Shown: positions 1 to 14,009, counted from the stretch's first letter. The stretch: DNA of 32,000 nucleotides from an uncultured Ignavibacteriota bacterium (GCA_903861125.1 CAIOTF010000013.1:92407-124406), one strand, 5' to 3'. Notes: generated by a model not told the origin, from the letters alone. A program made the numbers and translations.

Positions 1-3000
1 ATAGTGCCGGAAATAATGTAACGGTAACAGGTCTGAAAGTCGGAACAACATATTATTTTGCGGTATATGAATTTAACGGCCCCGCTGATGGCGTCGAAAA
101 TTACCTCACGACATCCCCGCTGACCGGCGGAAGTTCAACGCTGACTGCCACCCCTGTTACGCCAGCCAGTAATATTGTGTTCAGTAATGTGACATCAAGT
201 TCAATGACGATCGGGTGGAGTAATGGGGATGGAACAAAAAGAGTAGTGCTGGTCAAAAGCGGAAATTCTGTCGACGGAGAACCGATTGACGGAATCACCT
301 ATACTGCTTCAACAACATTTGGGAGCGGCACAGAGATCGGCACTGGAAATTACACAATCTATAATAGTAGCAGTAATTCGGTAACAGTAAACGGATTGCT
401 GCCGAATACAGTCTATTCAGTGGCGGTGTATGAGTATAAAGGGACAAGCGGCAACGAGAATTATCTTTTAGATAATCCGGGAACGGGAAGCAAAACCACC
501 CTTGCATCACTGCCTGGCACTCAATCTTCTGCGTTGGTATTCACAACGGTCGGTCCGAAAACTCTTACAATGAACTGGACTAAAGGTACTGGTGCAAGCC
601 GTCTTGTAGTGATGAAAGCCGGAAATGCGGTGGATACGGATCCTGTTGATGCGACCAGTTACAGCGCTAATACTCTCTTCGGCAGTGGTACACAGATTGG
701 CAGCGGGAATTATGTTGTGTATAACGGAACAGGAAATTCTGTTTCGGTCAGCAATCTGCTGATCAACACTACATATCATGTTGCAGTGTATGAATACAAC
801 GGAAGCGGCGAAGCGATTAATTATCTTACACCGTCGACGGTTGCAGAGAATACTACGACCGCTACGCCTACGGTCACACTCTCGAAGACATCGCTGACGA
901 ACTTTGGCAGTGTTATTGTCGGGACGAATTCATCCGAGCAAAGTTATACTGTGAGCGGCGCGAACCTGCTGGGCAATATTACCGTAACGCCGCCGACGGG
1001 ATTTCAAATATCGACCACGTCGGGATCGGGTTTTGATTCAGCAGCAATAACGCTGATTCCTGCTGCCGGAACTGTTCCGGCGACAACAATCTATGCGCGG
1101 TTCTCTCCCAGTGTTAGCGGTTCAACGAGCAAGACCATCACGCATAGCAGTGATTCATCTGTTACAAAAACAGTCAGTGTCATCGGAACCGGTGAAGGCG
1201 CATCCATTTATATCACCGGTTCGTACATGGACTTCGGGAAAATTGTTGTAAACGAAGTCTCCGCTGAACAGTCATATAAAGTTTCCGCGTCCAATGTCAT
1301 CGGCAATGTTGTGATCACCCCTCCCTCCGGATTTCAGATCTCCCGGAAACAAGGGGGGATTTTTGTTCCGACAAATCCCATAACATTAACCCCGTCCGGT
1401 AATGCGGTGGCACAGACGGATATCTATGTCCGCTTTGCTCCCGGCTCTGCAGGTAATTTCCTGGACAGCATTGTTCACTCATCTACTGGAACATCAAATG
1501 TCTCTCTGTCGGTGACCGGAACGGGCATTATCAAACCGACCTCAGGCGATAGTGCTCTGCAATTTTCATCGGTCGGTCCGAAGACAATTACATTGTCATG
1601 GAAGAAAGGGAACGGGATCAACCGTATCGTGGTGGTGAAAGAGAAAGTAACGGTAGATGCTCTTCCGGAAGATAATACTACATATACGGCCAATCCCATC
1701 TTTGGGCAAAGTTCGGAGATCGGATTGAAGAACTACGTGGTGTATAACGGTACCGGCACATACGTTACGGTAAGCGGATTGCAGCCGAATACAATGTATT
1801 ATTTTTCAATTTACCCATATAACGGCACCCCCGGTTCGGAAAAGTATCTCACGGACAATGTGGGTGACAGCAGTCAGTCCACGTCCGAACCAACAATCGT
1901 TATTACCGGTGCGTTAGCATCCTTCGGGAATGTGCATGCAGGCGAGATTTCTGCAGTGCAGAACTATTCCGTATCAGGCACAAACCTGGTGAATGGCATC
2001 TCAATCGTTCCGCCGGAAGGATTTCAAGTTTCCCTGGCATCATCCGGTCCGTTTATCGGATCGAATTCATCTCTAGCCTTGTCGCCGAATAATCAGGTGA
2101 TAGACCCTACGACGATTTATGTCCGGTGTACTCCGTTGACGGGCGGCGAGAAGAGAGATTCAATTTCTCACGTCAGTACCGGTTCGACCACACGCTATGC
2201 GCCTGTATCGGCATATTCTATTGTCGAACCGACGATACCATCATCGGCGATCATCTTCTCATCCGTTAAACCAACGTCGATGACCATCACGTGGAAAAAA
2301 GGGAATGGAACGAAACATCTGGTATTTCTTGGAACGGATTCTATATCCAATCCACTGCCGGAGGACCGCATGCATTATCCTTCATCGTTCCAATACGGAG
2401 AAGGTGCATCGCTTACGTCGAATATTTTTGCTGTCCAAAGTGATTCTTCAAACACGGTTACCGTTACGCATCTTACGCCAAATAAAAAATATTATTGTGC
2501 CGTCTTTGAATATAACGGCGACAGCACTTCCGCAGATTATCTGACCTCGTCGTATGCCTCTGCAAGCCAGAGAACGCAGCTTCCGGTTATTCTTGTGGAA
2601 GGTACTCTAGGCCTCTTTGACAAGATCGAACGGAATACGACATCGGGCGAAAAAAATTATACGGTTTCCGGTTCGGCACTGATGAACAATATTATCATAA
2701 CGCCGCCGGATGGTTTCCAGATATCTTTGACCAGCGGATTGGATTTCCGGTCATTGAATCCGATTACGCTTATCAATACTGACGGAATTGTCTCTGCGAC
2801 GGCGATCTATGTTCGTTTTGCACCGACGGTTGTCCGGGTGTATTCGGACAGTATCATGCATTCCAGTGCCGGCGCTACAACTATCTTCAGTCAGGTGCAC
2901 GGATCGTGCATAGCGTCTGAGCCGACGAAACAAGCCTCATCGATCGTGGTTTCTTCAATTGGTTCCGCTACTGCGGCAGTTGTCTGCACAGAAGGAAACG

Positions 3001-4496
3001 GCTTCAACAGGCTTATTATTGTCAGCACCGATACCCTGTCCGATCATCCGCCGGTTGATGGCACAAACTACACGGCGAACCCGGTATTCATGGCCGGTTC
3101 AATTCTCGGTCCGAACAGTTCTGTTGTGTACGGTGCGAACGGCACTTCGTGTGTTCTTACGGGATTGTTGCCGGATACCAAACATATTGTGACAGTGTAC
3201 GAATATAACGGGGAAGCAGGAACCGAAAACTATTTGACAGTAACGAAAACGCAGAAAGAATTCATAACGATGGTTGAAGCGCCGGTGTCACTTTCACCTG
3301 TGGACAAGGCAATCGATCAATCGTCAACACCGACTTTCGTCTGGAAGAAGTCACGCAATGCGGAAAAATATCTTCTTCAGGTGGCTTTGAACAAGGAATA
3401 TACCGGCACAGTTATTTCTGATACGGTCATCACCGATACAACATTCCACATGCCGATCACGCAGGCACTGAAATACGATACGCTGTATTATTGGAGAGTG
3501 GCGGGAATCAATTCCCGTGGCAGAGGTGATTTTTCTTCGGCATGTTCGTTTAGCACAGCTTCGCCGCCAAAGCTTCTTGTTGGTACAAGCCGTTTAAATT
3601 TTGGTCCGAAACAGATACATAACAAATATCAGATAAGTGTTGTAGTGCGGAACAATTCAATTACACCGCTAACGTTGGACTCTGTTCATTGTGCAACTGC
3701 TGGTTTTTCGGCGAGTATCTCTGTTCCGATGCTCACCCGCGTTGATTCATCGCTTGTGACGATTTCGTTCAGTCCGGATACTATCGGCATGTATGTAGAC
3801 ACGGTCATCGTCTATAACAATTCCGTTGACCGGTTGCTGCGTATTCCTGTTGCAGGAACTGCCCCGGCGGCATTGTTCACATCAAACAATGAATTTGATT
3901 TCAAAGAGGCTCAAGTCCGGCAGTTAAGCGAAAAAGTATTTTATATAACAAATTCATCCCCCAATGTGCTGAGGATCGATTCGATGATGAATCGGCTGCA
4001 TCAATTCGTGGTTGCGGTGGATTCTTTTCCCATTGTCATTGCCCGGGGTGATACATTCCACCTGAAGCTTCGGTGCACACCGGATTCGCTGAAAGAATTG
4101 GTTGATACACTGTATGCCTATACGAACGGAAATCCGGGAATATCCAAAGTGGTTATGAAAGCGCATGCTACGAATGTTTCGAAGGAAGATGAGAAGACTC
4201 CTGAAGTATTCACGCTGCAGCAGAATTTTCCGAATCCGTTCAATCCTAGCACAACCATAAAATTTGGTCTCACGCAGGATGCTGTTGTCTCACTGAAGAT
4301 GTATGATATTCTCGGCAGACAGGTGGGCATGCTGTTGAACAACGATCTGTTGACTCCCGGCTCGTACCGTTATGTGTGGGATGCCGGCCATTTGCCAAGC
4401 GGCGTTTATTTTTATCAGATTATTGCGGCAACGGTATCCGGAAATGTAAAAACCAACATCTTTAATGAAGTGCGAAAATTGCTTCTTGTTAAATAG
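1..4496 (+). CDS. Giant modular secreted/cell-surface protein, 5'-truncated by the window edge. It is an array of FN3-like and Ig-like modules ending in a T9SS (Por_Secre_tail) sorting domain.
   Basis: Frame 3 is open from nt 3. SAGNNVTVTGLKVGTTYYFAVYEFNG..ENYL precedes the GTG listed at 177 and repeats the module motif, so the true start lies upstream of the window. The protein contains repeated ~105-aa modules plus two PapD/ASPM-like beta-sandwich modules (LNFGPKQIHNKYQISVVVRNNS.., FDFKEAQVRQLSEKVFYITNSS..). The C-terminus is FPNPFNPSTTIKF...SGVYFYQI...LLLVK. Confidence 0.85.
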   Translation, partial: SAGNNVTVTGLKVGTTYYFAVYEFNGPADGVENYLTTSPLTGGSSTLTATPVTPASNIVFSNVTSSSMTIGWSNGDGTKRVVLVKSGNSVDGEPIDGITYTASTTFGSGTEIGTGNYTIYNSSSNSVTVNGLLPNTVYSVAVYEYKGTSGNENYLLDNPGTGSKTTLASLPGTQSSALVFTTVGPKTLTMNWTKGTGASRLVVMKAGNAVDTDPVDATSYSANTLFGSGTQIGSGNYVVYNGTGNSVSVSNLLINTTYHVAVYEYNGSGEAINYLTPSTVAENTTTATPTVTLSKTSLTNFGSVIVGTNSSEQSYTVSGANLLGNITVTPPTGFQISTTSGSGFDSAAITLIPAAGTVPATTIYARFSPSVSGSTSKTITHSSDSSVTKTVSVIGTGEGASIYITGSYMDFGKIVVNEVSAEQSYKVSASNVIGNVVITPPSGFQISRKQGGIFVPTNPITLTPSGNAVAQTDIYVRFAPGSAGNFLDSIVHSSTGTSNVSLSVTGTGIIKPTSGDSALQFSSVGPKTITLSWKKGNGINRIVVVKEKVTVDALPEDNTTYTANPIFGQSSEIGLKNYVVYNGTGTYVTVSGLQPNTMYYFSIYPYNGTPGSEKYLTDNVGDSSQSTSEPTIVITGALASFGNVHAGEISAVQNYSVSGTNLVNGISIVPPEGFQVSLASSGPFIGSNSSLALSPNNQVIDPTTIYVRCTPLTGGEKRDSISHVSTGSTTRYAPVSAYSIVEPTIPSSAIIFSSVKPTSMTITWKKGNGTKHLVFLGTDSISNPLPEDRMHYPSSFQYGEGASLTSNIFAVQSDSSNTVTVTHLTPNKKYYCAVFEYNGDSTSADYLTSSYASASQRTQLPVILVEGTLGLFDKIERNTTSGEKNYTVSGSALMNNIIITPPDGFQISLTSGLDFRSLNPITLINTDGIVSATAIYVRFAPTVVRVYSDSIMHSSAGATTIFSQVHGSCIASEPTKQASSIVVSSIGSATAAVVCTEGNGFNRLIIVSTDTLSDHPPVDGTNYTANPVFMAGSILGPNSSVVYGANGTSCVLTGLLPDTKHIVTVYEYNGEAGTENYLTVTKTQKEFITMVEAPVSLSPVDKAIDQSSTPTFVWKKSRNAEKYLLQVALNKEYTGTVISDTVITDTTFHMPITQALKYDTLYYWRVAGINSRGRGDFSSACSFSTASPPKLLVGTSRLNFGPKQIHNKYQISVVVRNNSITPLTLDSVHCATAGFSASISVPMLTRVDSSLVTISFSPDTIGMYVDTVIVYNNSVDRLLRIPVAGTAPAALFTSNNEFDFKEAQVRQLSEKVFYITNSSPNVLRIDSMMNRLHQFVVAVDSFPIVIARGDTFHLKLRCTPDSLKELVDTLYAYTNGNPGISKVVMKAHATNVSKEDEKTPEVFTLQQNFPNPFNPSTTIKFGLTQDAVVSLKMYDILGRQVGMLLNNDLLTPGSYRYVWDAGHLPSGVYFYQIIAATVSGNVKTNIFNEVRKLLLVK
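160..3239 (+). repeat. Intragenic protein-level module array in the order A-A-B-B-A-B-A-B-A. The copies are diverged and are not identical DNA repeats.
   Basis: A modules are FN3-like, with the signature W.KG.G..R.V..K........P.DG..Y.A...FG.G..IG..NY.VYNG.GNSV.V.GL.PNT.Y..AVYEYNG....NYL. They lie at approx nt 160-476, 522-827, 1539-1850, 2232-2546 and 2922-3239, and one more is partly visible at nt 3-150. B modules are Ig-like, with the signature FG.V.VG..S..Q.Y.VSG.NL.GNI.ITPP.GFQIS......IYVRF.P. They lie at approx nt 867-1190, 1203-1526, 1890-2216 and 2580-2909. A distinct module (TPTFVWKK...YLLQVA...YYWRVAG) lies at ~3273-3557. Confidence 0.7.
4206..4493 (+). other. T9SS C-terminal sorting domain (CTD) of the giant protein
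   Basis: FTLQQNFPNPFNPSTTIKFGLTQDAVVSLKMYDILGRQVGMLLNNDLLTPGSYRYVWDAGHLPSGVYFYQIIAAT...KLLLVK matches the remembered Por_Secre_tail (TIGR04183) pattern QNYPNPFNP.T.I.Y.L.....V.L.IYD..GR.V..L......G.....WD......SGVYFY.L. Confidence 0.85.
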
Positions 4497-4527: not shown

Positions 4528-5679
4528 ATGTATACAATTACTCTTGCGGGAAAACACTGTATGATAAAACCAACGAACCATTATTTCCGAATTCTGCCGA
4601 TCGTTTGGCTGCTGATGTTCTGTATTGCGTATCCTCTGTCAAAAAAGGAGAAGGCTGCAGCTGCACCGGTAGAACCAAAAAAACCAATGTATGAGCAAAC
4701 GTTCGCCATGTCGCTATTTCCGATGCTGCCGGTCGCCGTGGATTCCATTCTGCCGATAATCAGCTCCTCGTCAGTCGAGGTGAGTCCGGGTATTGCGAAC
4801 CTGTTGTTCTATAAGACAAATGTCGAAGTGATCCATCAGGTTGCTTTGAATCAATCAGAGAAAAAGTTCCTTGCCACGTACTTTGAAAACAGGGTTAGTA
4901 TGGCGTTATCCCGCGATCGCCGTTTTGGGATACTGAACGGACATGATTTACGCGTTCTGAAGATCAATGCAACGGACAGTACGTTCAAGATCCGAAACAC
5001 GCAGATGGAATCCGATATTCAACAATATGCAGCCGATCACCGTATCGACGGGATATTAACGGTAGATGTCCTCATCTCTGATACAAGGGTATTTTGTTAT
5101 TTAACGATCACCGATTTAAATTTTTTGAAGATCTGGACAAAGGAATTTTCGGCAAACTATGTCGACGTCCAGCCTGATTTAGAAGCAGAATTGCAAAAGA
5201 TGATGTCGTTGAAGAAAATTACGGGTTATACCGTTGAAAACATTACACTTGCGCTGCAAAGTTCCGGAGCGTATAACGGCACGAATAAACATCCGGATGG
5301 ATCAATGAACTTTCTTACGCTCGGGTACCGCTTCAACGTCTATTCAACCATTATCAATCGAATGAATTTTTTCATCGATTCGAGGGTTTTTTATGGTCTT
5401 AGGCTTGCGAACTTCAGTTATGCGTTCCAACCCGGCCTCTCGTTCGAATTATTGAAGAATGAAGAGGTGGGACCCCGGCTGCTCACTCTGGACCTGTCAT
5501 ACGGATATCACATTATTCCAAAGGAATTTTTATCGTCCTATATGGTAGGTCTTAGTCTCAATATGAGCCGTGACATCGGACTGACAGGGTACTATGGAAA
5601 GTTCAAGAACCAAAGCACAAAAGCAGCGTACCATGTGGCGGGAAACGCCTTTGGCATACAGATGAATTTTGTGTTGTAA
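4528..5679 (+). CDS. Hypothetical envelope protein with an N-terminal signal/anchor, a periplasmic domain and a predicted C-terminal outer-membrane beta-barrel
   Basis: This 383-aa ORF starts 31 nt after the adhesin stop. It has a hydrophobic N-terminus (ILPIVWLLMFCIAYPL), and ATG 4561 is an alternative start. The C-terminal ~150 aa show amphipathic beta-strand periodicity (FLTLGYRFNVY, FFIDSRVFYGL, YAFQPGLSFEL, LLTLDLSYGYHI, YMVGLSLNM, IGLTGYYGKF, AFGIQMNFVL). I recognise no named family. Confidence 0.6.
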   Translation: MYTITLAGKHCMIKPTNHYFRILPIVWLLMFCIAYPLSKKEKAAAAPVEPKKPMYEQTFAMSLFPMLPVAVDSILPIISSSSVEVSPGIANLLFYKTNVEVIHQVALNQSEKKFLATYFENRVSMALSRDRRFGILNGHDLRVLKINATDSTFKIRNTQMESDIQQYAADHRIDGILTVDVLISDTRVFCYLTITDLNFLKIWTKEFSANYVDVQPDLEAELQKMMSLKKITGYTVENITLALQSSGAYNGTNKHPDGSMNFLTLGYRFNVYSTIINRMNFFIDSRVFYGLRLANFSYAFQPGLSFELLKNEEVGPRLLTLDLSYGYHIIPKEFLSSYMVGLSLNMSRDIGLTGYYGKFKNQSTKAAYHVAGNAFGIQMNFVL

Positions 5680-5731
5680 ACGGAAACGTTATTGATACTA
5701 TAACCGAACATTTAATACGATTGCATCACTT

Positions 5732-6484
5732 ATGAAAAACATATTACAGACAATATTTCTTGTGCTACTATTTATGTCGATCGCTGCTTGTCAGGTTGAG
5801 ATCGAGGCAGAGCCGACACCCGGCAGCGAGGATAGCAATATTCCAAATCCTGCCATCGTCACAGACGGCAGCGTCGATGGCACAACTTCAAATCCTGTCA
5901 CTGTTGTTGATTCTGTGTCACAAAATAAGACTGAGGCAACGATAGCACAGGCCGCGGAAATAGACGTTTCACTTGCGACAATAAAAATAAGTTCGCCTCT
6001 CATTAACGTTCAATTGCTGATGAATCTGCTGAATGAAAAGACGGAGTTCGTGATCGAATATTCGGGAGCAGCCCCCCGGAAGATCACAAAACCAACCGAT
6101 CTTCCGGATAAAAAAGTTCCGACGGAAAAAGAAATATCGACACTTGTCAACGATGCAGTGGCAAAGAACGATTCGGCAAAAAAAGCGAAACAGGATTCCC
6201 TTGGCCGTAATTCCTATTCAAAAGAGGATGCTGATTATAACAAAGCAATGGCAAAATTGAACAGCGCTCAACGCCTGTTCTCGCGAAAGAGGTATGCCGA
6301 TGCACTCCGCGAGATCGATGGGGCAATAACGGCCGCGCCGAATATTGCACTTTCCCATTCAGTGAAAGGTTCAATTCATTATATGCTTAAGCAGAACCTT
6401 GAGGCAAAATCCAGCTGGGAGAGAGCCTTGGAATTGGATCCAGCACAGGACAATGTAAGGGCAATTTTATTACGAATGTATTAA
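5732..6484 (+). CDS. TPR-repeat lipoprotein
   Basis: It has a signal peptide with a lipobox (LFMSIAA-C). A low-complexity Thr/Ser/Pro/Lys-rich linker follows. The C-terminus has TPR-like helices (YNKAMAKLNSAQRLFSRKRYADALREIDGAI...KGSIHYMLKQNLEAKSSWERALELDPAQDNV). Confidence 0.7.
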   Translation: MKNILQTIFLVLLFMSIAACQVEIEAEPTPGSEDSNIPNPAIVTDGSVDGTTSNPVTVVDSVSQNKTEATIAQAAEIDVSLATIKISSPLINVQLLMNLLNEKTEFVIEYSGAAPRKITKPTDLPDKKVPTEKEISTLVNDAVAKNDSAKKAKQDSLGRNSYSKEDADYNKAMAKLNSAQRLFSRKRYADALREIDGAITAAPNIALSHSVKGSIHYMLKQNLEAKSSWERALELDPAQDNVRAILLRMY

Positions 6485-6497
6485 AAGGAATGATTCT

Positions 6498-7343
6498 ATG
6501 AATTCATCGTTTGCGGGTTATCTTCTCTTCATCGTTGCGGCGTATTTTCTTATTGTCGTCGGCGATCCCAACAATGCAGTGGCGATCCATCACTTTCAAA
6601 ACCTTTATTTCCCGACGGTGTTACTCCGTTATATCCATTACCCAGGCTTTATCTTTGTCACCGTGGGTGTGTATGCATCGGTATTGATCAGTTTTACGTT
6701 TCGCGAGATCAAAAGTGCTCTCCGGGCTCAAATACTGGCATTTTTCCCGACGAAACTTCAGTTCGAAAATTATATCCATACCATTAAGGAAATTGCTGAT
6801 TATTCTTCGAAGAACGATGTTGAAACTCTTGAAGAGTATGTTCAGAATATCAAATATCCTTTCCTACGGGACGGTCTTTTAATGATTGTCAACGGCTATA
6901 AAAAAGAAGAGATCGTTGAGATCCTTGAATCCCGGATTGCAAGCGAGCATGAACGGGATGAGATCGATGATGATGTCTGGCGAGCCTGCGCCCGGTACTC
7001 GCCGGGGTACGGTATGTTGGGAACCACCGTTGGTTTGATCCAAATGTTTTCTGCAAGCATTGATCCGGCAAAAGGATTCGGACCGATAATTGCAGCAATG
7101 GCGGTTGCATTTACCACCACATTATACGGTCTTGTGTATTCAAACTTTATCTATCAGCCCATCGCAGACAAAATAGAACGGCGCAATACCGATGAAATGC
7201 TATTGAAGTCCATGATCGCGGAAGGGATCATCATGTTGGCGGATAAAAGACGTCCTTCCTTTATTGAAGAAAAACTATCGACGTATCTGTACCGAAACAG
7301 GTCTCTGCGCAACTCAAAAATTCCGGAACTCAAAAAAGCATAA
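6498..7343 (+). CDS. motA: MotA-type proton-channel stator subunit (MotA/TolQ/ExbB family, 4-TM MotA topology)
   Basis: The 281-aa product has TM1 at aa ~8-23 and TM2 at ~50-68, followed by a ~100-aa charged cytoplasmic loop. Then come YSPGYGMLGTTVGLIQMF and IIAAMAVAFTTTLYGLVYSNFIYQPIADKI, the channel signature including both conserved prolines (P169, P221). The gene starts 13 nt after the upstream gene. Confidence 0.85.
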   Translation: MNSSFAGYLLFIVAAYFLIVVGDPNNAVAIHHFQNLYFPTVLLRYIHYPGFIFVTVGVYASVLISFTFREIKSALRAQILAFFPTKLQFENYIHTIKEIADYSSKNDVETLEEYVQNIKYPFLRDGLLMIVNGYKKEEIVEILESRIASEHERDEIDDDVWRACARYSPGYGMLGTTVGLIQMFSASIDPAKGFGPIIAAMAVAFTTTLYGLVYSNFIYQPIADKIERRNTDEMLLKSMIAEGIIMLADKRRPSFIEEKLSTYLYRNRSLRNSKIPELKKA

Positions 7344-7350
7344 TAATCTT

Positions 7351-8028
7351 ATGTTCAATAAAAAGAATCCGCATAAAAGAGGTGAAGAGGAGCATTGGCA
7401 GGTCAGCTATATCGATCTGCTTACGGCAATGCTTGCAGCCTTCACGTTATTGCTGGCAATGTCGAAGCCAGATCAGGCAAAGTTCGATTCCTTCGCCAGC
7501 GCATCGTCTGCGAAAAGCGTCCAACAGAATTTATCAACCGTTGCGAAGGAACTGATGGAGACCATCAGTAAGGATTCGACACTGAAGAACCAGGTGAAAG
7601 TAGTGTTGACGGATGACGGCGTAGAAGTCCGGTTCGCATCGGCGTTATTGTTCGCTTTGGGAAAGGCAAAAATGCAGCCCGATGGTTATGACGCCGTGAA
7701 ACATTTGTCTCCGGTTTTGCTGAAATTTGTTGAAGCACGAAAAGCCTATATCTCCGTTGAAGGACACACGGATGACCAGCCGATTATCGGCGGAAAAGAA
7801 TTCCGGTCGAATTGGGAACTCTCCTCATCCCGTGCTCTGGATGTGGTTCATTTTTTACAGGACTCGATGGGTTTTGTTCCACATCGGTTGTCGGGAATAG
7901 GATACGCCGATTCTCGGCCCCAAGATACAGGCCGTGATACACTTACGGGAAAATTTACGGATTACGCACGCACTCAAAACCGTCGGGTCGTGCTTCGAAT
8001 ATATTATTTTAACGGTTCAACACAATAA
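7351..8028 (+). CDS. motB: MotB-type stator subunit with a C-terminal OmpA-like peptidoglycan-binding domain
   Basis: ATG 7351 lies 7 nt after the motA stop, whereas the listed start at 7264 would overlap motA by 80 nt. HWQVSYIDLLTAMLAAFTLLLAM is the MotB TM helix and carries the invariant Asp (gat 7414-7416). The OmpA-like domain reads VEGHTDDQPI...SNWELSSSRALDVVHFL...GYADSRP...NRRVVLRI. Confidence 0.85.
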   Translation: MFNKKNPHKRGEEEHWQVSYIDLLTAMLAAFTLLLAMSKPDQAKFDSFASASSAKSVQQNLSTVAKELMETISKDSTLKNQVKVVLTDDGVEVRFASALLFALGKAKMQPDGYDAVKHLSPVLLKFVEARKAYISVEGHTDDQPIIGGKEFRSNWELSSSRALDVVHFLQDSMGFVPHRLSGIGYADSRPQDTGRDTLTGKFTDYARTQNRRVVLRIYYFNGSTQ

Positions 8029-8049
8029 CAATATCAGCGGTTAACTATT

Positions 8050-9807
8050 ATGAAAAAATCTCTCTGCTTTCTCTGTGCTGTTCTGGCCGTGCTTTTCCAA
8101 ACAGCGTTTTCTTCCACGGATGTTGAAAAAAAGAAACTCACCATTGAATCGGAATGTGAATGGAGGGTGTCCAACGAGATCCGTAAGTATTATCCATCCA
8201 TGAAATACCTTATTTCAGCCGACGCAACAGTGTTGGAAGAATATCCGGCTGAAGATACGGAAAAACCGACGCGCGACCTGATGCTTCCCGGCGTGAAAGG
8301 GTTCGAGACGAACGTCGAAAAAGAAAATGTCCGAATTTCGGTTGAGAAGATCGAGGTTCAGCTTTTAGCGGACAAATATTTCACTAAAAGTGATCCGGAA
8401 CTGCTTCGCCTGCTCGAAAATATCGTTTATTATTCGGGGAAATTGAGCCGTTCACGGGGAGATAAGGTGACCATCACGGAAATGTCATTCCCATCCTCAA
8501 CGCCGGTCCCACCCGTTAATGTCGATTCTGTTACGCAGGCGCATAAAGAATTAACCAGGAGCAAACTACCGGCAGTAGATACCACTAACGAAAATAACTC
8601 TGGTATGGGTGCAGATCTCTCGCTTATGAACATAAAATATATTGGGGCACTTTTTCTGGTCGGAGGAATCGCTATCGGGGTGCTGCTGCTTGTCCGTAGG
8701 AGTAAATTGGACGAGGTTCGGTATCAACAAAAAGTTACGGAACTGGATAATGAACGGCAGCAGAACGAGATTAAAAATGCCGAACCGAATGTGATGCTGA
8801 TGCTTCCCGAGAACATTCAGCGCGCAAATCAAAAAGCGGAATTAGAAAAGAAAAAATCCGAGATTATTACAACCGCCGTCGGAAGACCCGACGTCATTAT
8901 TGAGGTCATTCGTGAGATGCTTCGCGATCCTCAAAAGCAGGCGCAGGCGCAGACCGTCCTTTCGAGCCTTGGCCAGAGCATTATTGCCATTGTCCGCGAG
9001 CATGTAACCGAAACTGAAAATCATCAGTTGAGCAAACTTATTGCTGATGCGCCGCAGGTAGAAAACGAGATGGTCAATACCGCACTAGCCTCATTTCAGA
9101 ATGCGATCGTAATGCAAAAATTTACAATGGCAAATAATGAGAAAAGGAATCCATTTGCATTCCTTGAAAAACTGTCTGAGCCGCAGCTCTATCTGCTGAT
9201 GAAGGACGAACCTGCCGGAATCGTTGCAATGATTCTATCTCAAGTCAATCCGGGTATTGCCGGAAGTTTGCTGCGCAACCTTCCATCAATGCAGCAGGGT
9301 GAGGTTTCAATGGAATTGGTCAAACTGCAGCGGTTGACGAGCGATGCATACCTTTCCGTTGCACGCGACCTGGCTACTAAGGCCTCCAAAATACCGGCGA
9401 TCAACAATGTCCAGGTACAGGGTCCCGAATTGCTGATGGATATCTTCGACAACATGGACGAGTCGGACGAGCACTCGATCTTTGAATATATTAAAGTGAT
9501 GAATGTTGATCTGTACCGCGAGATCTCTTCGCAGCGCGTTGCCTTTACGTCCATCGATTCGTTTGACGATAAGATCATCCGGCAAATTATGAAGGATGTT
9601 CCCGGCGAAGAAATGGCTTTAGCCCTTAAGAATGCTCCGGAAAAAATTATAGAAAAATTCCTTTCTGTACTGCCGTCAAAAGCAAAGACGATATTGAACG
9701 AGCACATTGCGAATCTCGATTCCGTTTCGCTGGAAGAAGAACAAAAAGTGCGCAGAAAAATTACAAGGTTGGTACGAAATTATCTGCGGGTTGCAAAGAA
9801 AGCATAA
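8050..9807 (+). CDS. Bitopic membrane protein: signal peptide or TM1, a ~170-aa periplasmic domain, a TM helix, a coiled-coil linker, and a full-length FliG-like region (N, M and C domains)
   Basis: The N-terminus is MKKSLCFLCAVLAVLFQTAFSS. The TM helix is KYIGALFLVGGIAIGVLLLV (nt 8635-8694). The FliG_N-like part is QTVLSSLGQSIIAIVREH...VENEMVNTALASF. The FliG_M-like part is FAFLEKLSEPQLYLLMKDEPAGIVAMILSQVNPGIAGSLLRNLPSMQQGEVSMEL (compare EHPQ.IALILS.L.P..AA.VL..LP..LQ.EV). The FliG_C-like part is DDKIIRQIMKDVPGEEMALALKNAPEKIIEKFLSVLPSKAKTILNEHIANLDSVSLEEEQKVRRKI (compare LDDRSIQ.LL.EV....L.LALKGA...L.EKFL.NMS.RAA..L.DD....GPVRL..VE..Q..I). Confidence 0.75.
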   Translation: MKKSLCFLCAVLAVLFQTAFSSTDVEKKKLTIESECEWRVSNEIRKYYPSMKYLISADATVLEEYPAEDTEKPTRDLMLPGVKGFETNVEKENVRISVEKIEVQLLADKYFTKSDPELLRLLENIVYYSGKLSRSRGDKVTITEMSFPSSTPVPPVNVDSVTQAHKELTRSKLPAVDTTNENNSGMGADLSLMNIKYIGALFLVGGIAIGVLLLVRRSKLDEVRYQQKVTELDNERQQNEIKNAEPNVMLMLPENIQRANQKAELEKKKSEIITTAVGRPDVIIEVIREMLRDPQKQAQAQTVLSSLGQSIIAIVREHVTETENHQLSKLIADAPQVENEMVNTALASFQNAIVMQKFTMANNEKRNPFAFLEKLSEPQLYLLMKDEPAGIVAMILSQVNPGIAGSLLRNLPSMQQGEVSMELVKLQRLTSDAYLSVARDLATKASKIPAINNVQVQGPELLMDIFDNMDESDEHSIFEYIKVMNVDLYREISSQRVAFTSIDSFDDKIIRQIMKDVPGEEMALALKNAPEKIIEKFLSVLPSKAKTILNEHIANLDSVSLEEEQKVRRKITRLVRNYLRVAKKA

Positions 9808-9847: not shown

Positions 9848-9895
9848 CTCCGCAGTTTTCCGAACGATCTCATCGGATCTGCGGAGGTGTTTTTA
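9848..9895 (+). terminator. Rho-independent terminator closing the 1-9807 block
   Basis: The outer stem is a perfect 8 bp, CTCCGCAG (9848-9855) with CTGCGGAG (9879-9886). The inner stem is 5 bp, TCCGA (9859-9863) with TCGGA (9873-9877). GTGTTTTT follows. A second hairpin, CGTGAATG/CATTCACG (9809-9832), lies just after the stop codon. Confidence 0.75.
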
Positions 9896-10252
9896 GGAAA
9901 GTGTAGATGATTGCACGAACAGCATAATGCATAACCCTGTCTATCCTGCATTCACCGATGCATTGTTGTCGAGCACCTCATTTCAATAATTATTTTGTAT
10001 TGCCTCCGTATTTGTTTCGGACGATAGATATTCCGAAGTAGAAAACTATTTTTCCCCCCGTTACCATCCTTCATCACTTACATTCAATTGTTTGCCCCCT
10101 CGGGCAGCTCTGTTCTTTCCGCCTGTCGTTCAATGAATTACGTATCTGCGTAGTGTAAATTTTAATTTAAAAAATTGTAAACAATTGTTGACAGAAATAA
10201 TTTCTGGATACCAAAAATCTTTGTTTTTCCGCTATTTTGGCCATATTTGTTC

Positions 10253-10268
10253 TGGCACGATGATTGTG
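10253..10268 (+). promoter_or_regulatory. Sigma-54 (-24/-12) type promoter candidate upstream of the MerR-like gene
   Basis: TGGCACgatgaTTGTg has the -24 GG and the -12 TTG at the canonical spacing (consensus TGGCAC-N5-TTGCW), but the -12 C is replaced by T. It is intergenic, 139 nt upstream of ATG 10407. A sigma-54 activator gene is present in the same block. Confidence 0.5.
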
Positions 10269-10406
10269 ACATTATAATATGATGCTAAGAACGATTCAGC
10301 ATCGACTAAAAAAAACCGATACGTTTTTTCTCATGCTTTCTCTTGATAATGTATCCCGGAAAATTTACCGGTCTGTTTTAACAACTTTCAACACAGGATC
10401 TATACC

Positions 10407-11264
10407 ATGCAAAAAGTGATGTTTACAACAGATGAAGTTGCGAAACTGTTGAACGTGAATAAGTCTACCATAAAGCGCTGGACAAATGAAGGGAAAATAC
10501 ATTGTGAGCGTACTCCGGGTCAGCATCGGAAATTCAGCAAGGAAGATGTATTGGAATTTTCAAAGAAAAACAATTATCAGGTTGAGAAAATACACAAGGA
10601 ATTTTACGTCGATGATGATTCTACGTTGATGAAACAGTTGATTGTGCAAAACGAGGGCAATGCATTTCGTTCAATCATATTTTCATCCTCTCTTAAGAGA
10701 GAGCAGCAGGAACTCATGAGCATTATCAAAAAATTGTATACAGAAAATATTGCCTATAAGGTAATTCTTCGCGATTTCATTCTTCCTGTGATGACGAAAC
10801 TCGACCGGATCGAATCGATCGGCAAAATTGATGAAAAAAGGTGCCTGGTTGCTAAAAACACTATCGGAAATTCAATGGTTGCCTTCACCGACAGTGTTCC
10901 CAGATTAAAACGGCGCAGTTCGGTTGCAGTTCTTTTTTCATTCGATGTCTCGCTCGAAAATGACATAAAAGTAATTGAATCGAAACTTGAGGTCGATGGC
11001 TACCTCGTTATTAATCTCGGCATCCAGTATTCCTGGACAACGGTAAATCAATGGATGGTTAAAAATGATTCCAACATCTTGCTTTGCCTGGTGAAGCATT
11101 CGAAAAACGAAAATCAGCACCACAGTAATATTTCTGCGTTGGAGCGGATCAGCGAAGACCGCAATATGCTGTTTTTATGCGGGACAACAAAAATGTTCAT
11201 TGACATGGATCTGGAATATGTGGGGAAATTATACAAATCGCAAAAAGTGTTAGAAGTAGCGTAA
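10407..11264 (+). CDS. MerR/excisionase-type HTH regulator with a C-terminal B12-binding-like domain (four-helix bundle plus Rossmann-like) that lacks the cobalamin His ligand
   Basis: The HTH is FTTDEVAKLLNVNKSTIKRWTNEGKIHCERTPGQHRKFSKEDVLEF. The C-terminus follows a CarH/LitR-like layout (ILRDFILPVMTKLDRIESIGKIDEKRCLVAKNTIGNSM...VAVLFSFDVSLENDIKVIESKLEVDGYLVINLG...ILLCLV). DVSLEN occupies the position where D/E-x-H-x-x-G is expected. Confidence 0.55.
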   Translation: MQKVMFTTDEVAKLLNVNKSTIKRWTNEGKIHCERTPGQHRKFSKEDVLEFSKKNNYQVEKIHKEFYVDDDSTLMKQLIVQNEGNAFRSIIFSSSLKREQQELMSIIKKLYTENIAYKVILRDFILPVMTKLDRIESIGKIDEKRCLVAKNTIGNSMVAFTDSVPRLKRRSSVAVLFSFDVSLENDIKVIESKLEVDGYLVINLGIQYSWTTVNQWMVKNDSNILLCLVKHSKNENQHHSNISALERISEDRNMLFLCGTTKMFIDMDLEYVGKLYKSQKVLEVA

Positions 11265-11391
11265 TATATGTCTATCTCAGCGTACTACTTCCGTATCAAC
11301 GTTGGTTTACAGAAAGGGCAACAATGGTTGCCAATCGACTCCGGAAAAAAAATAAAGCGTTGATATTAAGCCAAAAAGAGCAAAAATGGAT

Positions 11392-11407
11392 TGGCACAAG
11401 GTTTGAG
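11392..11407 (+). promoter_or_regulatory. Sigma-54 (-24/-12) type promoter candidate upstream of the small ORF
   Basis: TGGCACaaggtTTGAg has the canonical GG-to-TTG spacing. It lies 37 nt upstream of ATG 11444, which leaves room for a short leader carrying AGGAGG. Confidence 0.55.
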
Positions 11408-11443
11408 TATGATATAGTATACTTATAGAAAGGAGGGTGAAAC

Positions 11444-11587
11444 ATGGTTTACATTTTACTGATACTTGCATACTTCGCGATACTATTGTTCTTCTCACGG
11501 TTTTTTGCATTTCTGAAGGGATGCGACGATTCAATGGCTCAGACAAGCGGCAATATAGAATTATCGGATAGTTCAGCTGTGAAATAG
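11444..11587 (+). CDS. Small (47 aa) single-TM membrane peptide, absent from the supplied ORF track because it is shorter than 60 aa
   Basis: A perfect SD, AGGAGG (11431-11436), lies 7 nt before ATG 11444. The translation is MVYILLILAYFAILLFFSRFFAFLKGCDDSMAQTSGNIELSDSSAVK*. The N-terminus is a hydrophobic helix and the tail is polar. A sigma-54-like promoter precedes it. Confidence 0.5.
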   Translation: MVYILLILAYFAILLFFSRFFAFLKGCDDSMAQTSGNIELSDSSAVK

Positions 11588-11639
11588 AATTAGAATGTGA
11601 CGGGTAAGACTATTGGCAGTATAACAGAAAGGTTTGTAC

Positions 11640-12119
11640 ATGAATACTCGATTATGGGATCACACTGAATTTAAGGACAATGCGGTAGTTGTGTGTGAGG
11701 ATGCCGGACTTAACAACTATCTCAATCAATTTTTGAAGTTCATCGATATGTCGTATGAAGAGATGTCGGCTGATAAGTTGGTCGAATCGATCCCCGGATT
11801 ACGTGACAAAAAGATGTCCATGATCATCTTTGAAGGAAAAGAGAACATTAAAACCATCATGAACAAGCGGTATCTTCTCCGGCGGGATCATCCGGATATG
11901 CAGTTCATCATCCTGCTGGATGAACCGGCGGAATCCGAAACCGTGAGCGAGGATAAAAATTTTCAAGATGTTAAATTTTTGCATAAGAAAGATGTTCTTC
12001 AGAAGATCTCATTATTCCTTGGATATGTGTACTCATCCAAAAAATATTCGGGAACACCAAATAGTAAGGCATACGCGAAAAATATTTCGGATCATCATAG
12101 AGTTGATATGTATGTGTAG
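11640..12119 (+). CDS. Receiver-like (pseudo-receiver) domain protein
   Basis: ATG 11640 is the probable start, because the listed start at 11634 is TTG. The sequence shows the alternating beta/alpha pattern of a REC fold (AVVVCEDAG / LNNYLNQFLKFI / MSMIIFEG / MQFIILLDE / VKFLHKKD). Glu (gaa 11832-11834) occupies the position of the phospho-acceptor Asp. The family call is weak. Confidence 0.35.
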   Translation: MNTRLWDHTEFKDNAVVVCEDAGLNNYLNQFLKFIDMSYEEMSADKLVESIPGLRDKKMSMIIFEGKENIKTIMNKRYLLRRDHPDMQFIILLDEPAESETVSEDKNFQDVKFLHKKDVLQKISLFLGYVYSSKKYSGTPNSKAYAKNISDHHRVDMYV

Positions 12120-12233
12120 CGGCAATGGCCCGGCAAGGTTCACGTATGCGCAGCAGAAGTAATTGTACAAAAGAATTGCGATGTTGAGATATATAAATTG
12201 TTTACGCAGTCAAGTAAAAACAAGGCACCAAAC

Positions 12234-13373
12234 ATGAGTAAGGAATACCCAAAAGTATCAGTGAATCCCGAAGGCAGGACTATTAACAATATTCTTATCA
12301 TTGATGATGACGAGTTATGGTTACAAATGCTCGATGTTGAGTTGAAGCATCTCAACTATACCGTGTATTGCAGCACCGGAAAAGAAACAATTGATGACTA
12401 CAAAGGGAAAAAAATCGATTTTATTCTGTGCGACATTCATATGGATGGCAAGAGCGGCTTTGATTTGTTAGAAGAGATCCGTGTTAATAATAGAATGTCG
12501 ATGATCCCGTTCGTATTAATGTCCGGCATGATGGATCCTTTCGTTATCCGTCGAGCAATGTGGCTTGGCGCTGATGATGTGCTGGAAAAACCGTTTTCTA
12601 TTAATGATCTCATCAACGTCTTCAACGCGCAAGCCGAAAGGATTGCAAGGATCCACAAGTATGCCGAAGAGCGTCTTGATACACTTCGGTCAAGCATTCA
12701 AAAAGTATTTCCATCCGAACTGTATAATTCGCTCCACATTATATCCGGAAATTCGTATATCCTTACAGAACTGACGGAGGAGATAGACCAACGTAAGCTG
12801 AAAAGGATCGGCAATTCTATCACTAAGGGAGCAAATCAGCTGCACACCATTTTTGACAATATTTCGCTGTACACTCACCTTCTAACGAACAAGGACGTCT
12901 TTGCAAAACTCTCCAAAGAATCATTCGCCTATGATTCCGGAATGGTGATTGAGAATGTGTGCAGAAATACGGCGAAGAAATATGAACGGGAGCATTGCCT
13001 GAAGATGCAAAACAATTTCAGCACTCAGGTCCGCATTGCACGGGAATACCTTGAAAAGGTTATAACCATTGTGGTGGATAATGCATTCAAGTTCTCACAG
13101 ATTGACAGCATCGTTTACGTTGATGTTAAAGAGGATAGCTCACTGTTAAAAATTACGGTGGTTGATAATGGCGACGGTCTAAACGAAGATCAATTATCTC
13201 AGATAGGTCCATTTATGCAGTTTGACAAAAATACCTACCAGCAGAGGGGTATTGGTCTTGGGATATCACTTGCAAAACTTATTGTTGAACTTCATTCAGG
13301 CATTATATCCTTTACCTCGCAAAAGGGTCAGGGTACTACTGTTTCAATCATACTTCCTATTCTACCAAAATAA
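12234..13373 (+). CDS. REC-first hybrid kinase: receiver domain, degenerate DHp and HATPase_c
   Basis: ATG 12234 is the probable start, because the listed start at 12198 is TTG. The REC domain reads ILIIDDDE...DFILCDIHMDGKSGFDL...LGADDVLEKPFS. The HATPase part has N box VVDNAFKFS, G1 box VDNGDGL and G2 box GIGLGISLAK. The H-box position reads FPSELYNSLHIISG rather than SHELRTPL..I.G. Confidence 0.8.
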   Translation: MSKEYPKVSVNPEGRTINNILIIDDDELWLQMLDVELKHLNYTVYCSTGKETIDDYKGKKIDFILCDIHMDGKSGFDLLEEIRVNNRMSMIPFVLMSGMMDPFVIRRAMWLGADDVLEKPFSINDLINVFNAQAERIARIHKYAEERLDTLRSSIQKVFPSELYNSLHIISGNSYILTELTEEIDQRKLKRIGNSITKGANQLHTIFDNISLYTHLLTNKDVFAKLSKESFAYDSGMVIENVCRNTAKKYEREHCLKMQNNFSTQVRIAREYLEKVITIVVDNAFKFSQIDSIVYVDVKEDSSLLKITVVDNGDGLNEDQLSQIGPFMQFDKNTYQQRGIGLGISLAKLIVELHSGIISFTSQKGQGTTVSIILPILPK

Positions 13374-13639
13374 TCCGTATACACCCATAATTCTTCATAC
13401 GTCACAATTAGGACGGAGAAGTGTGTGGTAACGGATTTTCCACCAAGAGTGTCTTTGGCTTGATGGAACGTCGGTTCATCCATCTCATCCCCAATTTGCC
13501 TTCTCCTGCAGTATCTCGCTCCAACGTACACTATTTTTCTTTTCAACGGAACACCCTGGTTCTGCCTCTTGTAAACATAAAATAATCCGGCACATCCGAA
13601 TAGCTCATGAATAATGTCGGTGATGGAAATTGATGCCAA
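13328..13639 (-). CDS. Possible small GIY-YIG (URI)-like nuclease domain ORF, or a remnant of one
   Basis: GLFYVYKRQNQGVPLKRKIVYVGARYCRRRQ...VLIVTYEELWVYTDY resembles GIY...YIG...R...E (compare UvrC GVYRMYD..G.VIYVGKAKDLRKRL...TEALLLE.NYIK). The start codon is TTG. The 3' end overlaps the convergent kinase gene by 46 nt. An in-frame TAG separates it from ORF 13646-13873. Confidence 0.3.
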   Translation of the reverse strand: MASISITDIIHELFGCAGLFYVYKRQNQGVPLKRKIVYVGARYCRRRQIGDEMDEPTFHQAKDTLGGKSVTTHFSVLIVTYEELWVYTDYFGRIGSMIETVVP

Positions 13640-13952
13640 CTTTTTCTATCCGCTTCGTCGTGTCTTACGTATTTGATCATTTTTTAGACATATTGAATAT
13701 TGTAACGGGCTATGACCACTAAAGTTGACAGAGGAATACAATTCCCGCGACGTAGAAAAAATCAGTAGTAATGCTTCTTTTTCATTCGTATTCGATGTTT
13801 TAATGTCTGTCAGTAATTCACTCCATAGATCTTGATAATGTATAGTATTGTACATCTGTAAATATGTAAACAAAATTCTACAATCGTCAACAGACGTTTA
13901 CGAAAGTAATCAAAAATTTACAGTATTTATGGACATTTTTTTTATTAAAACT

Positions 13953-13968
13953 TGGCGTAATTTTTGAT
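13953..13968 (+). promoter_or_regulatory. Weaker sigma-54-like promoter candidate upstream of the giant kinase
   Basis: TGGCGTaatttTTGAt has GG and TTG at the canonical spacing but deviates at -22/-21 and in the -12 GC. It lies 42 nt upstream of ATG 14010. Confidence 0.3.
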
Positions 13969-14009
13969 ATATTGTTTAACTCGATGAGTAACCTACAATA
14001 AGGATAGAT

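Follow-up and report, generated by a model that had tools for sequence, protein, structure and literature searches.

The 32,000-nucleotide stretch from an uncultured Ignavibacteriota bacterium considered here (GCA_903861125.1, CAIOTF010000013.1:92407-124406; hereafter the window) carries, at positions 4528-9807, five tightly packed + strand genes, which encode an outer-membrane (OM) protein (g1), a tetratricopeptide-repeat (TPR) protein (g2), the stator subunits MotA and MotB, and a rotor protein in which the ring-building motif RBM3 of FliF is joined to FliG, hereafter FliF(RBM3)::FliG. I propose, with a probability of roughly 0.6, that the five genes specify a self-contained motor, derived from that of the flagellum and devoid of filament, rod and secretion apparatus, in which MotA5B2 units anchored to the peptidoglycan turn a ring of FliF(RBM3)::FliG. 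The periplasmic RBM3 (S-ring) domain is joined via one transmembrane (TM) helix to a complete cytoplasmic FliG; several of the charged residues that mediate torque between MotA and FliG are, at the level of sequence, conserved on both partners; and the five genes are found together in a broad range of uncultured diderm bacteria, where they are subject to strong purifying selection. The recognisable parts are all flagellar homologs and the principle inferred for them is the flagellar one; the composition of the system as a whole appears to be undescribed.

The rotor protein (8050-9807, + strand, 585 aa) has 63 homologs of 570-700 aa, which share an architecture made of a signal peptide, a conserved periplasmic domain of ~130 aa, a variable linker, a TM helix, a charged linker and the N, M and C domains of FliG. 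Along the + strand of the window these parts correspond to a signal peptide that looks cleavable from hydropathy and alignment (8050-8112), the periplasmic domain (aa 22-150, 8113-8499), a variable Pro/Gln-rich linker that precedes the TM helix (8500-8631), the single TM helix itself (aa 195-215, 8632-8694, Kyte-Doolittle peak 2.56), the charged cytoplasmic linker that follows it (8695-8943) and the cytoplasmic FliG part (8944-9780), with an N-like (8944-9141), an M (9184-9396) and a C region (9490-9780). The hydropathy profile accordingly consists of an N-terminal signal-like segment and one TM segment at aa 195-215. All three FliG domains exceed their Pfam gathering cut-offs (PF14842, FliG_N, 32 bits; PF14841, FliG_M, 39 bits; PF01706, FliG_C, 59.5 bits), and the best sequence match in the PDB is the FliG of Thermotoga maritima (1lkv, E 3e-20, aa 367-577); the equivalog model TIGR00207 gives 91 bits against a cut-off of 227. 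The preliminary description of this locus, which was drawn from the sequence alone, had taken the product to be bitopic, its cytoplasmic 300 aa aligning with the N, M and C domains of FliG, and the profile searches do place it in the FliG family. Canonical FliG is soluble, has ~330 aa and docks on the C-terminus of FliF without a covalent bond, whereas here the FliG part is preceded by a TM helix, which itself follows a signal peptide and a periplasmic domain. The expression "membrane-anchored FliG" is thus right as to FliG and the membrane, yet falls short of the anchor, which is a FliF RBM3/S-ring domain and hence a second flagellar component.

The identity of the periplasmic domain emerges mainly from its fold. 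Modelled with AlphaFold2 (AF2) from an 18-sequence alignment, it attains a mean predicted local distance difference test (pLDDT) of 81 and is built of a helix, two long strands with a low-confidence loop between them, a second helix and a final strand, i.e. the topology of a ring-building motif. In a Foldseek comparison with the PDB, the top 18 matches are all RBM3/S-ring domains of Salmonella or Vibrio FliF, 17 of them with E values from 8e-6 to 2e-4 and the last with 1.2e-3, at a probability of 1.0, the next fold being OsmC at E > 7e-3. A profile of the domain had no meaningful match among PDB sequences, so that the link to FliF is made by structure comparison and by distant relatives: the Pfam model YscJ_FliF_C is faint in the protein of the window (E 0.021) and above the gathering cut-off in the distant relatives P0085, P0089 and P0090. 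An LPG and an RGD motif are invariant in 46-47 of the 47 distant members.

In FliF, RBM3a and RBM3b constitute the S-ring domain, a beta-collar of ~110 residues between them grips the rod, and RBM1 and RBM2 hold the export gate (PMC11739650). The collar position is occupied in the rotor protein by a loop of ~30 residues with the invariant LPG, as opposed to ~110 residues in Salmonella FliF; RBM1 and RBM2 are not present, periplasmic conservation being limited to ~130 residues; and an apparently cleavable signal peptide lies where FliF has its first TM helix (TM1). Since the periplasmic domain is an RBM3 of FliF, the rotor protein may be regarded as a natural mini-FliF::FliG fusion without RBM1/RBM2, and the loss of these two motifs fits the absence of an export gate, which they hold in FliF. 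The rotor protein therefore retains the ring-building part of FliF and drops the parts serving secretion and the axle.

On the cytoplasmic side, alignment to T. maritima FliG puts K527, within an ALKNAP motif, at the position of E. coli K264, and this lysine is invariant in the core family, i.e. the relatives that keep the gene order of the window (see below). K/R544 corresponds to E. coli R281 and is positively charged in 25/25 core and 47/47 distant members, and only the core family keeps D/E551, the counterpart of E. coli D288/289. The motif that binds FliM, EHPQR, has been lost: EHPQT of T. maritima aligns with D-E-P-A-G, and the family has at this position a conserved K-D-E-P-x-G (consensus K-D-E-P-P-G), a replacement that fits the absence of FliM and FliN.

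The counterpart of these residues is found in MotA (6498-7343, + strand, 281 aa), for which the four TM helices and family assignment given in the preliminary description are borne out by MotA_ExbB (PF01618, 70 bits) and by full-length matches to the best NCBIfam models, MotP and PomA (153 and 139 bits, below the equivalog cut-offs). The closest PDB sequences are MotA 9lu9 and PomA 8bri (E ~1e-29). In a HMMER alignment, LE(E/D) at aa 111-113, invariant in orthologs, corresponds to PomA E96/E97 and E. coli E98; K105 corresponds to PomA K89, the orthologs keeping a positive residue at 105 or 106 (the K89/R88 region of PomA), and both gating prolines are kept. A 24-nt unit occurs in two copies (83% match) at 6503-6550, where motA begins and its TM1 is encoded; chance or composition is the probable cause.

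MotB (7351-8028, + strand, 225 aa) begins at the ATG at 7351, a TTG at 7264 being also possible as a start, and comprises a TM helix, the channel Asp22, a plug and an OmpA-like peptidoglycan-binding domain. The earlier reading of a MotB with the channel Asp and an OmpA-like anchor agrees with the Pfam matches (MotB_plug 41 bits, OmpA 44 bits) and with hydropathy, which detects a single TM helix containing D22. The best NCBIfam model is MotD (128 bits, below the equivalog cut-off), and three motifs are invariant, namely WQVSYIDLLTA (which holds Asp22), NWELS..RA and NRRVVIRI. Judging from these features, MotA and MotB are flagellar-type stator subunits with everything that ion-driven rotation requires.

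The two remaining proteins are not drawn from the flagellar repertoire. g1 (4528-5679, + strand, 383 aa), the true start of which is probably the ATG at 4561, has a signal peptide, after which AF2 and Foldseek predict an alpha/beta domain in the periplasm (~nt 4693-5223) and, at the C-terminus, an 8-stranded beta-barrel (~nt 5230-5673); the model, from a 17-sequence alignment, has a pLDDT of 70 and a predicted template-modelling score (pTM) of 0.40. Compared with the PDB, the N-terminal domain of the model is closest to the LpoB C-domain 4q6l (E 5e-6, TMt 0.71), with matches to TolB as well, and the barrel to the TM domain of OmpA, NspA, Ail and OmpX (E 1e-5 to 1e-4). The OM beta-barrel of the preliminary description is consequently retained, for half of the protein only, the other half being the periplasmic domain with the LpoB/TolB-N-like fold. 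No Pfam family matched g1, and 17 members of the g1 family gave noise only, including a FlgT_M match at noise level (E 0.09) in one relative. A single-sequence search found two homologous proteins, and a profile built from locus translations was needed to recover more. g1 always opens the block in the core family.

g2 (5732-6484, + strand, 250 aa) is a periplasmic TPR protein in which a conserved N-terminal motif (~nt 5963-6067) is connected through a low-complexity linker to a TPR module of ~90 aa at the C-terminus (~nt 6209-6484). Pfam assigns TPR_2 at 26.5 bits and, weakly, TPR_21; among orthologs, the motif reads SAPxxVKLxTPxLNMDVLLDLYNKDIDFxIDYSG and the TPR end is invariant. The view of g2 as a TPR lipoprotein is upheld for its TPR and its periplasmic location and not for lipidation as a family trait: a lipobox Cys exists in this genome alone, the other orthologs having a plain signal peptide, in a comparison that omits one close relative whose contig ends before that region.

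The + strand open reading frames (ORFs) at 177-4496, 4528-5679, 5732-6484, 6498-7343, 7351-8028 and 8050-9807, from an upstream adhesin gene through the rotor gene, are separated by gaps of 31, 52, 13, 7 and 21 nt. None of these gaps holds a terminator-like site, the few matches of the scan all being intragenic and their total (9) showing no excess over shuffled sequence (7.2 +/- 2.8). An intrinsic terminator closes the block at 9848-9895 on the + strand, with a 13-bp interrupted stem plus GUGUUUUU (folding free energy -20.8 kcal/mol, z -3.5); the simple terminator scan overlooked the hairpin at 9848-9886, which was revealed by folding energy against shuffles, 0/200 of which were as good as the hairpin followed by its T-run. 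Six same-strand genes with gaps of 7-52 nt, no hairpin in between and a terminator at the end, as described from the start, are therefore confirmed. Neither a sigma-54 promoter nor one of the Bacteroidota -7 type proved to be conserved 5' of g1 in the 17 loci searched, no Rfam family matched anywhere in the window, and a tandem-repeat search of the window returned no relevant repeats.

Conservation of the five genes was assessed in related genomes. A scan of 185,579 species genomes with two peptide patterns only detected the core family in 20 genomes, all of them uncultured metagenome-assembled genomes (MAGs) labelled as Bacteroidota, Ignavibacteriae or "Chitinophagaceae". The order g1-g2-MotA-MotB-FliFG (FliFG being the rotor gene) is colinear and tightly spaced wherever the contig reaches, in ~20 species-level MAGs. 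The linkage of the motA, motB and anchored-fliG trio with the barrel and TPR genes, a neighbourhood test set beforehand, accordingly turned out to hold in all sufficiently long related loci. Orthologs are 32-39% (g1), 36-56% (g2), 47-64% (MotA), 49-68% (MotB) and 41-54% (FliFG) identical to the proteins of the window, the close relative L007 reaching 84-93%.

All ORFs of the cluster are intact in the window. Against an 84%-identical ortholog, the ratio of non-synonymous to synonymous substitution rates (dN/dS), estimated from synonymous sites close to saturation, is 0.046 for MotA, 0.038 for MotB and 0.058 for FliFG, a protein whose linker reaches 0.19 and whose FliG part stays at 0.024; apart from the linker, the values along the protein are 0.02-0.06. 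The wider surroundings (+/-10 kb) of L001, L003, L005 and L006 are partly syntenic, with SecG and thymidine kinase upstream and a GCV_T-family folate-binding protein, LOG-family and transglutaminase-like proteins, DapF and diacylglycerol kinase downstream. Because core-family loci have this wider housekeeping synteny, the cluster is a stable chromosomal feature of the lineage and not an island.

Relatives beyond the core family were sought with a profile of the periplasmic domain, which retrieved 74 proteins from 1.84 billion representatives. Most of those outside the core family have 580-740 aa, and FliG domains were identified in 7 of the 10 tested. Loci of such relatives hold the same five parts in other orders, FliFG-g1-TPR-MotA-MotB in L027/28, L032 and L033, and g1-TPR-FliFG-MotA-MotB in L029; their proteins share only the domain architecture with the core family. 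Weak g1 homologs are found in distant loci (E 1e-8 to 1e-4), and g2 is homologous to their TPR proteins (E 5e-26 to 2e-17). That the set survives rearrangement argues strongly for a functional unit.

Other loci depart further from this plan. At L030:5104-11815 and L031:836-11040, the FliFG gene (together with MotAB in L031) directly follows a gene for a protein of ~990 aa, the C-terminus of which is homologous to the TPR module of g2 (E 5e-8). Upstream are genes for DUF4402 (a Csu/spore-coat-U-like pilin, 24.8 bits) and for PapD_N-like chaperones (23.7 bits), which looks like a chaperone-usher-type fibre cluster adjoining the motor genes; the FliFG of L031 carries in addition an N-terminal LysM domain. 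At L034:8456-12597, from a MAG labelled Deltaproteobacteria bacterium RIFOXYA12_FULL_61_11, a TPR protein of 318 aa adjoins a FliFG of 644 aa, with no MotAB near the pair. The relatives P0085, P0089 and P0090 contain the RBM3-like domain, with YscJ_FliF_C over the cut-off, without FliG; P0090 (532 aa) combines that domain with a TPR repeat, so that the ring domain and the TPR partner can share one chain. Two further observations concern these loci. A small divergent PilZ-domain gene lies upstream in L034, and MotA, intact in all other loci, is called as two ORFs (142 and 137 aa) at L032:10000-10783, owing to a frameshift or pseudogene or to an assembly error.

As regards flagellar genes, profile searches identified no other flagellar family in any large ORF of the window, the rest of which encode regulators, transporters and metabolic enzymes. 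The absence of flagellar genes from the 32 kb, as initially claimed, is thus correct for the other large ORFs and incorrect in one respect, for a FliF domain lies inside the rotor protein. Genes for the export gate (FlhA/B, FliPQR), rod, hook, flagellin and FliM/N are likewise missing within the Pfam-annotated +/-10 kb of about a dozen loci. Independence from the flagellum is in this way established solely for the gene neighbourhood and for the features of the protein, i.e. its own ring domain and its lost FliM-binding motif.

How the five products might work together can be outlined as follows. Polymerisation of the fusion protein through RBM3 would yield a ring, just as with FliF and with engineered FliF-FliG fusions, and the ring would display the FliG C-domains beneath the inner membrane, where ion flow through peptidoglycan-anchored MotA5B2 units would push (or turn) it. 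As there is no switch complex, rotation would probably be unidirectional. On its periplasmic face the ring may meet the TPR protein g2 and the LpoB/TolB-N-like domain of g1, which would act as a stator or bushing scaffold, as in the motors of Vibrio and Campylobacter, or else be the driven load. The net effect would be the delivery of ion-motive energy from the inner membrane to the peptidoglycan/OM layer. A more specific version, namely a free-standing rotary nanomachine in which MotAB spins the RBM3::FliG ring for a task dedicated to the OM or the cell surface, reached via the OM-barrel and TPR partners, is put forward tentatively and has somewhat less than an even chance. In evolutionary terms the module would derive from the flagellar motor by reduction or, with lower probability, be a survivor related to a rotor-stator pair that predates the recruitment of type III export.

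Several points weigh against a self-contained rotary motor. Ring formation and rotation are both deduced from homology. The acidic equivalent of D288/289 is not kept in distant members, as far as a rough alignment can tell, and the residue equivalent to E. coli R297 is Ser. The linker between RBM3 and the TM helix is 45-140 aa long across the family, variable, Pro/Gln/Glu-rich or coiled-coil (a coiled coil of ~140 aa in long members), hence probably flexible or coiled-coil and ill-suited to stiff periplasmic torque; moreover, the cluster encodes no axle and no obvious load. The g1 model is of moderate confidence, with the scores already given. Finally, the cultured relatives Melioribacter and Ignavibacterium are flagellated (PMC3534657).

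Owing to the long variable linker and the missing axle, a non-rotary transducer akin to Tol-Pal or TonB stays a live rival, if an unlikely one. MotAB would cycle on the FliG of a bitopic protein that forms no ring, and the work would pass to g2 and g1 for the control of OM tethering, constriction or peptidoglycan synthesis. The list of parts parallels TolQ/TolR/TolA/TolB/CpoB/Pal, the genes lie in a housekeeping context that the core family itself conserves, and a long flexible periplasmic linker suits reach more than torque. However, the periplasmic domain is a ring-building motif that closely resembles in structure only domains from 33-35-mer rings, the surface facing the motor is the torque helix of FliG and not a TM-helix contact as in TolA or TonB, and no sequence similarity to TolA, TolB, CpoB or Pal was detected in the cluster. 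It is rather improbable, too, that the genes provide an accessory or alternative rotor-stator to an ordinary flagellum, in which RBM3::FliG would join or replace FliF/FliG, MotAB would be flagellar stators and g1/g2 a periplasmic scaffold in the manner of the Vibrio T/H-ring or of Campylobacter PflAB/FlgP. Some flagella use TPR-type proteins and proteins of the TolB-N/LpoB fold as scaffolds for their stators. The four parts that can be recognised all belong to flagellar types and cultured members of the neighbouring class are flagellated (PMC3534657), yet the rotor protein cannot replace FliF without the RBM1/RBM2 that house the export gate, and its FliM-binding motif is lost. Furthermore, there are no flagellar genes within 10 kb at the annotated loci, the five genes stay together through the shuffling of their order, and in the scan, limited to two peptide patterns, the core family was encountered in 20 MAGs only and not in flagellated isolates.

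A motor for surface motility or for moving adhesins in the manner of gliding, coupled to the giant upstream protein, is decidedly improbable. The ORF at window positions 1-4496, open to base 1, is the C-terminal 1,497 aa of a surface protein of 2,821 aa in the full contig; the preliminary description had called it a giant protein tagged for the type IX secretion system (T9SS), which stands as to a surface protein of 2821 aa, with the qualification that the window truncates it at its start and that the T9SS sorting tail scores 26.3 bits, just below the cut-off of 27. In this window 31 nt, devoid of a terminator, separate the end of the adhesin gene from g1, T9SS-tailed proteins are encoded within a few kb of the cluster in L003, L011 and L030, and a chaperone-usher-like fibre cluster abuts the motor genes in variant loci. 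Against this, the adhesin precedes g1 in this genome only and not in the other core-family loci examined, which have SecG, thymidine kinase, nucleoside hydrolase or a permease in its place, so that the coupling suggested earlier is not conserved; T9SS cargo genes recur in these loci and adjacency could be due to chance, and no Gld/Spr homologs are in the cluster. The last candidates, a decaying relic of a lost flagellar locus and a Zorya-like anti-phage system built on a MotAB-type motor, are effectively excluded. Remnant flagellar genes occur in non-motile lineages. Rotor proteins without filaments are on record in 11% of non-motile species (PMC12199754), and MotB has a weak match to ZorB (76 bits), but the ORFs are intact with a low dN/dS (0.02-0.06), for which the relic was rejected, and PADLOC returned only the generic ZorB on MotB, for which the defence idea was rejected, with no match to ZorA/C/D or any other model for the remaining four proteins. 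Flagellar MotD fits MotB better (128 bits), distant lineages have invariant motifs in common, the non-flagellar partners dedicated to the motor are kept as well, and the surrounding synteny is stable and housekeeping, not that of a defence island.

For the sake of completeness, the modules of the adhesin are repeated fn3/purple-acid-phosphatase-N-like domains alternating with Ig-like units of ~100 aa, followed by ASH/DUF1573 Ig domains and the T9SS tail. Downstream of the terminator, some 510 nt (9896-10406) are non-coding up to a MerR-like gene, with a GC content that falls to ~0.38, no Rfam match and no + strand ORF of at least 80 aa. A run of + strand signalling genes occupies 10407-23400, starting with a MerR-type helix-turn-helix protein, the C-terminal part of which (~230 aa) drew no family assignment, and including a receiver-HATPase hybrid, a receiver-PAS-kinase, an NtrC-type sigma-54 activator and a hybrid kinase of 1865 aa with 2-3 GAF and ~10 PAS domains. 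None of these signalling genes is kept beside the motor cluster in other genomes.

A self-contained FliF(RBM3)::FliG motor would be of interest in several respects. FliG has been considered a protein of flagella alone, and no other 5:2 motor is known to have it as its partner; if true, the present one would be the first FliG-based rotor outside the flagellum. A conserved motor core (S-ring domain, FliG and MotAB) fitted to new envelope proteins would show that the rotor-stator pair is a transferable unit, and would offer a natural minimal system for the study of torque generation and of MS/C-ring assembly without about 40 other proteins. It bears on the origin of the flagellum, namely on whether rotor and stator could exist ahead of, or independently of, the export apparatus and the axial structures, and may point to a new means by which diderm bacteria supply the OM with energy. 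In line with the opinion expressed from the sequence that no described system has this composition, the literature gave none, and full-text searches found no description of FliF naturally fused to FliG and accompanied by MotAB away from flagellar loci. A phylogeny of MotAB published in 2025 groups the stators of flagella in a clade that it defines by flagellar function (PMC12505986), and a survey of the same year, which reported the above-mentioned filament-less rotor proteins, asked whether they have another function (PMC12199754), a question that the module would make directly testable.

Set against known systems, the module would resemble GldLM, ExbBD-TonB, AglRQS and ZorAB in being an ion-driven 5:2 motor for envelope or surface work outside the flagellum, in a host lineage that has T9SS cargo. 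Those systems contain no FliG and no FliF ring domain, and the MotA of the window is closest to PomA/MotP. No GldL/GldM or GldK/N family is present among the ORFs of the window, where the only sign of a T9SS is the sorting tail of the non-conserved adhesin; PADLOC likewise found no ZorA with its long tail (including none for MotA), ZorC/D or ZorE in the five cluster proteins, its one match being the ZorB on MotB cited above. With Tol-Pal the module has in common a 5:2 ion-driven motor, a bitopic inner-membrane protein, a domain of TolB-N/LpoB fold, a TPR protein, an OmpA-like peptidoglycan binder and a housekeeping context, the likeness of g1 being at the level of the fold only (N-domain against LpoB/TolB-N). 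It differs from Tol-Pal in that the motor is of the MotAB branch and not TolQR, the partner is a cytoplasmic FliG, and a ring-building motif is present; Tol family profiles did not match the cluster proteins, and the Pal model gave just 26 bits on the OmpA domain of MotB.

Periplasmic proteins of TPR/Sel1 type and small OM-linked alpha/beta proteins accompany MotAB in Vibrio (MotX/MotY/FlgT/FlgP) and in Campylobacter (PflA/PflB/FlgP). In contrast to these stator scaffolds, with which there is no detectable sequence homology, the module has no flagellar neighbours and g1 has an integral OM barrel of its own. Engineered FliF-FliG fusions of Salmonella and Vibrio alginolyticus assemble MS/S-rings (PMC11481574, bioRxiv 10.1101/2023.02.06.527414), and in them, too, FliF is covalently joined to FliG. 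They are laboratory constructs with full-length FliF within a complete flagellum, whereas the fusion reported here is natural, is without two thirds of FliF and occurs away from flagellar genes.

A further parallel is the flagellar motor's own core. It differs from the module in having FliF and FliG on separate polypeptides; in the module FliF is cut down to RBM3, with a vestigial collar (~30 against ~110 residues), a signal peptide that probably replaces TM1, no RBM1/RBM2 and no EHPQR, and genes for the export gate, FliM/FliN, rod, hook, filament and LP-ring are missing from the neighbourhood, where the dedicated OM barrel/LpoB-fold and TPR partners are encoded instead. What the two have in common is the machinery of torque, namely a MotA/MotB stator with plug, channel Asp, both prolines and OmpA-like anchor, a FliG with N, M and C domains and the conserved Lys/Arg of its torque helix, and the RBM3 fold of FliF; the likely principle is also shared, with ion-driven MotA pentamers pushing a ring of FliG.

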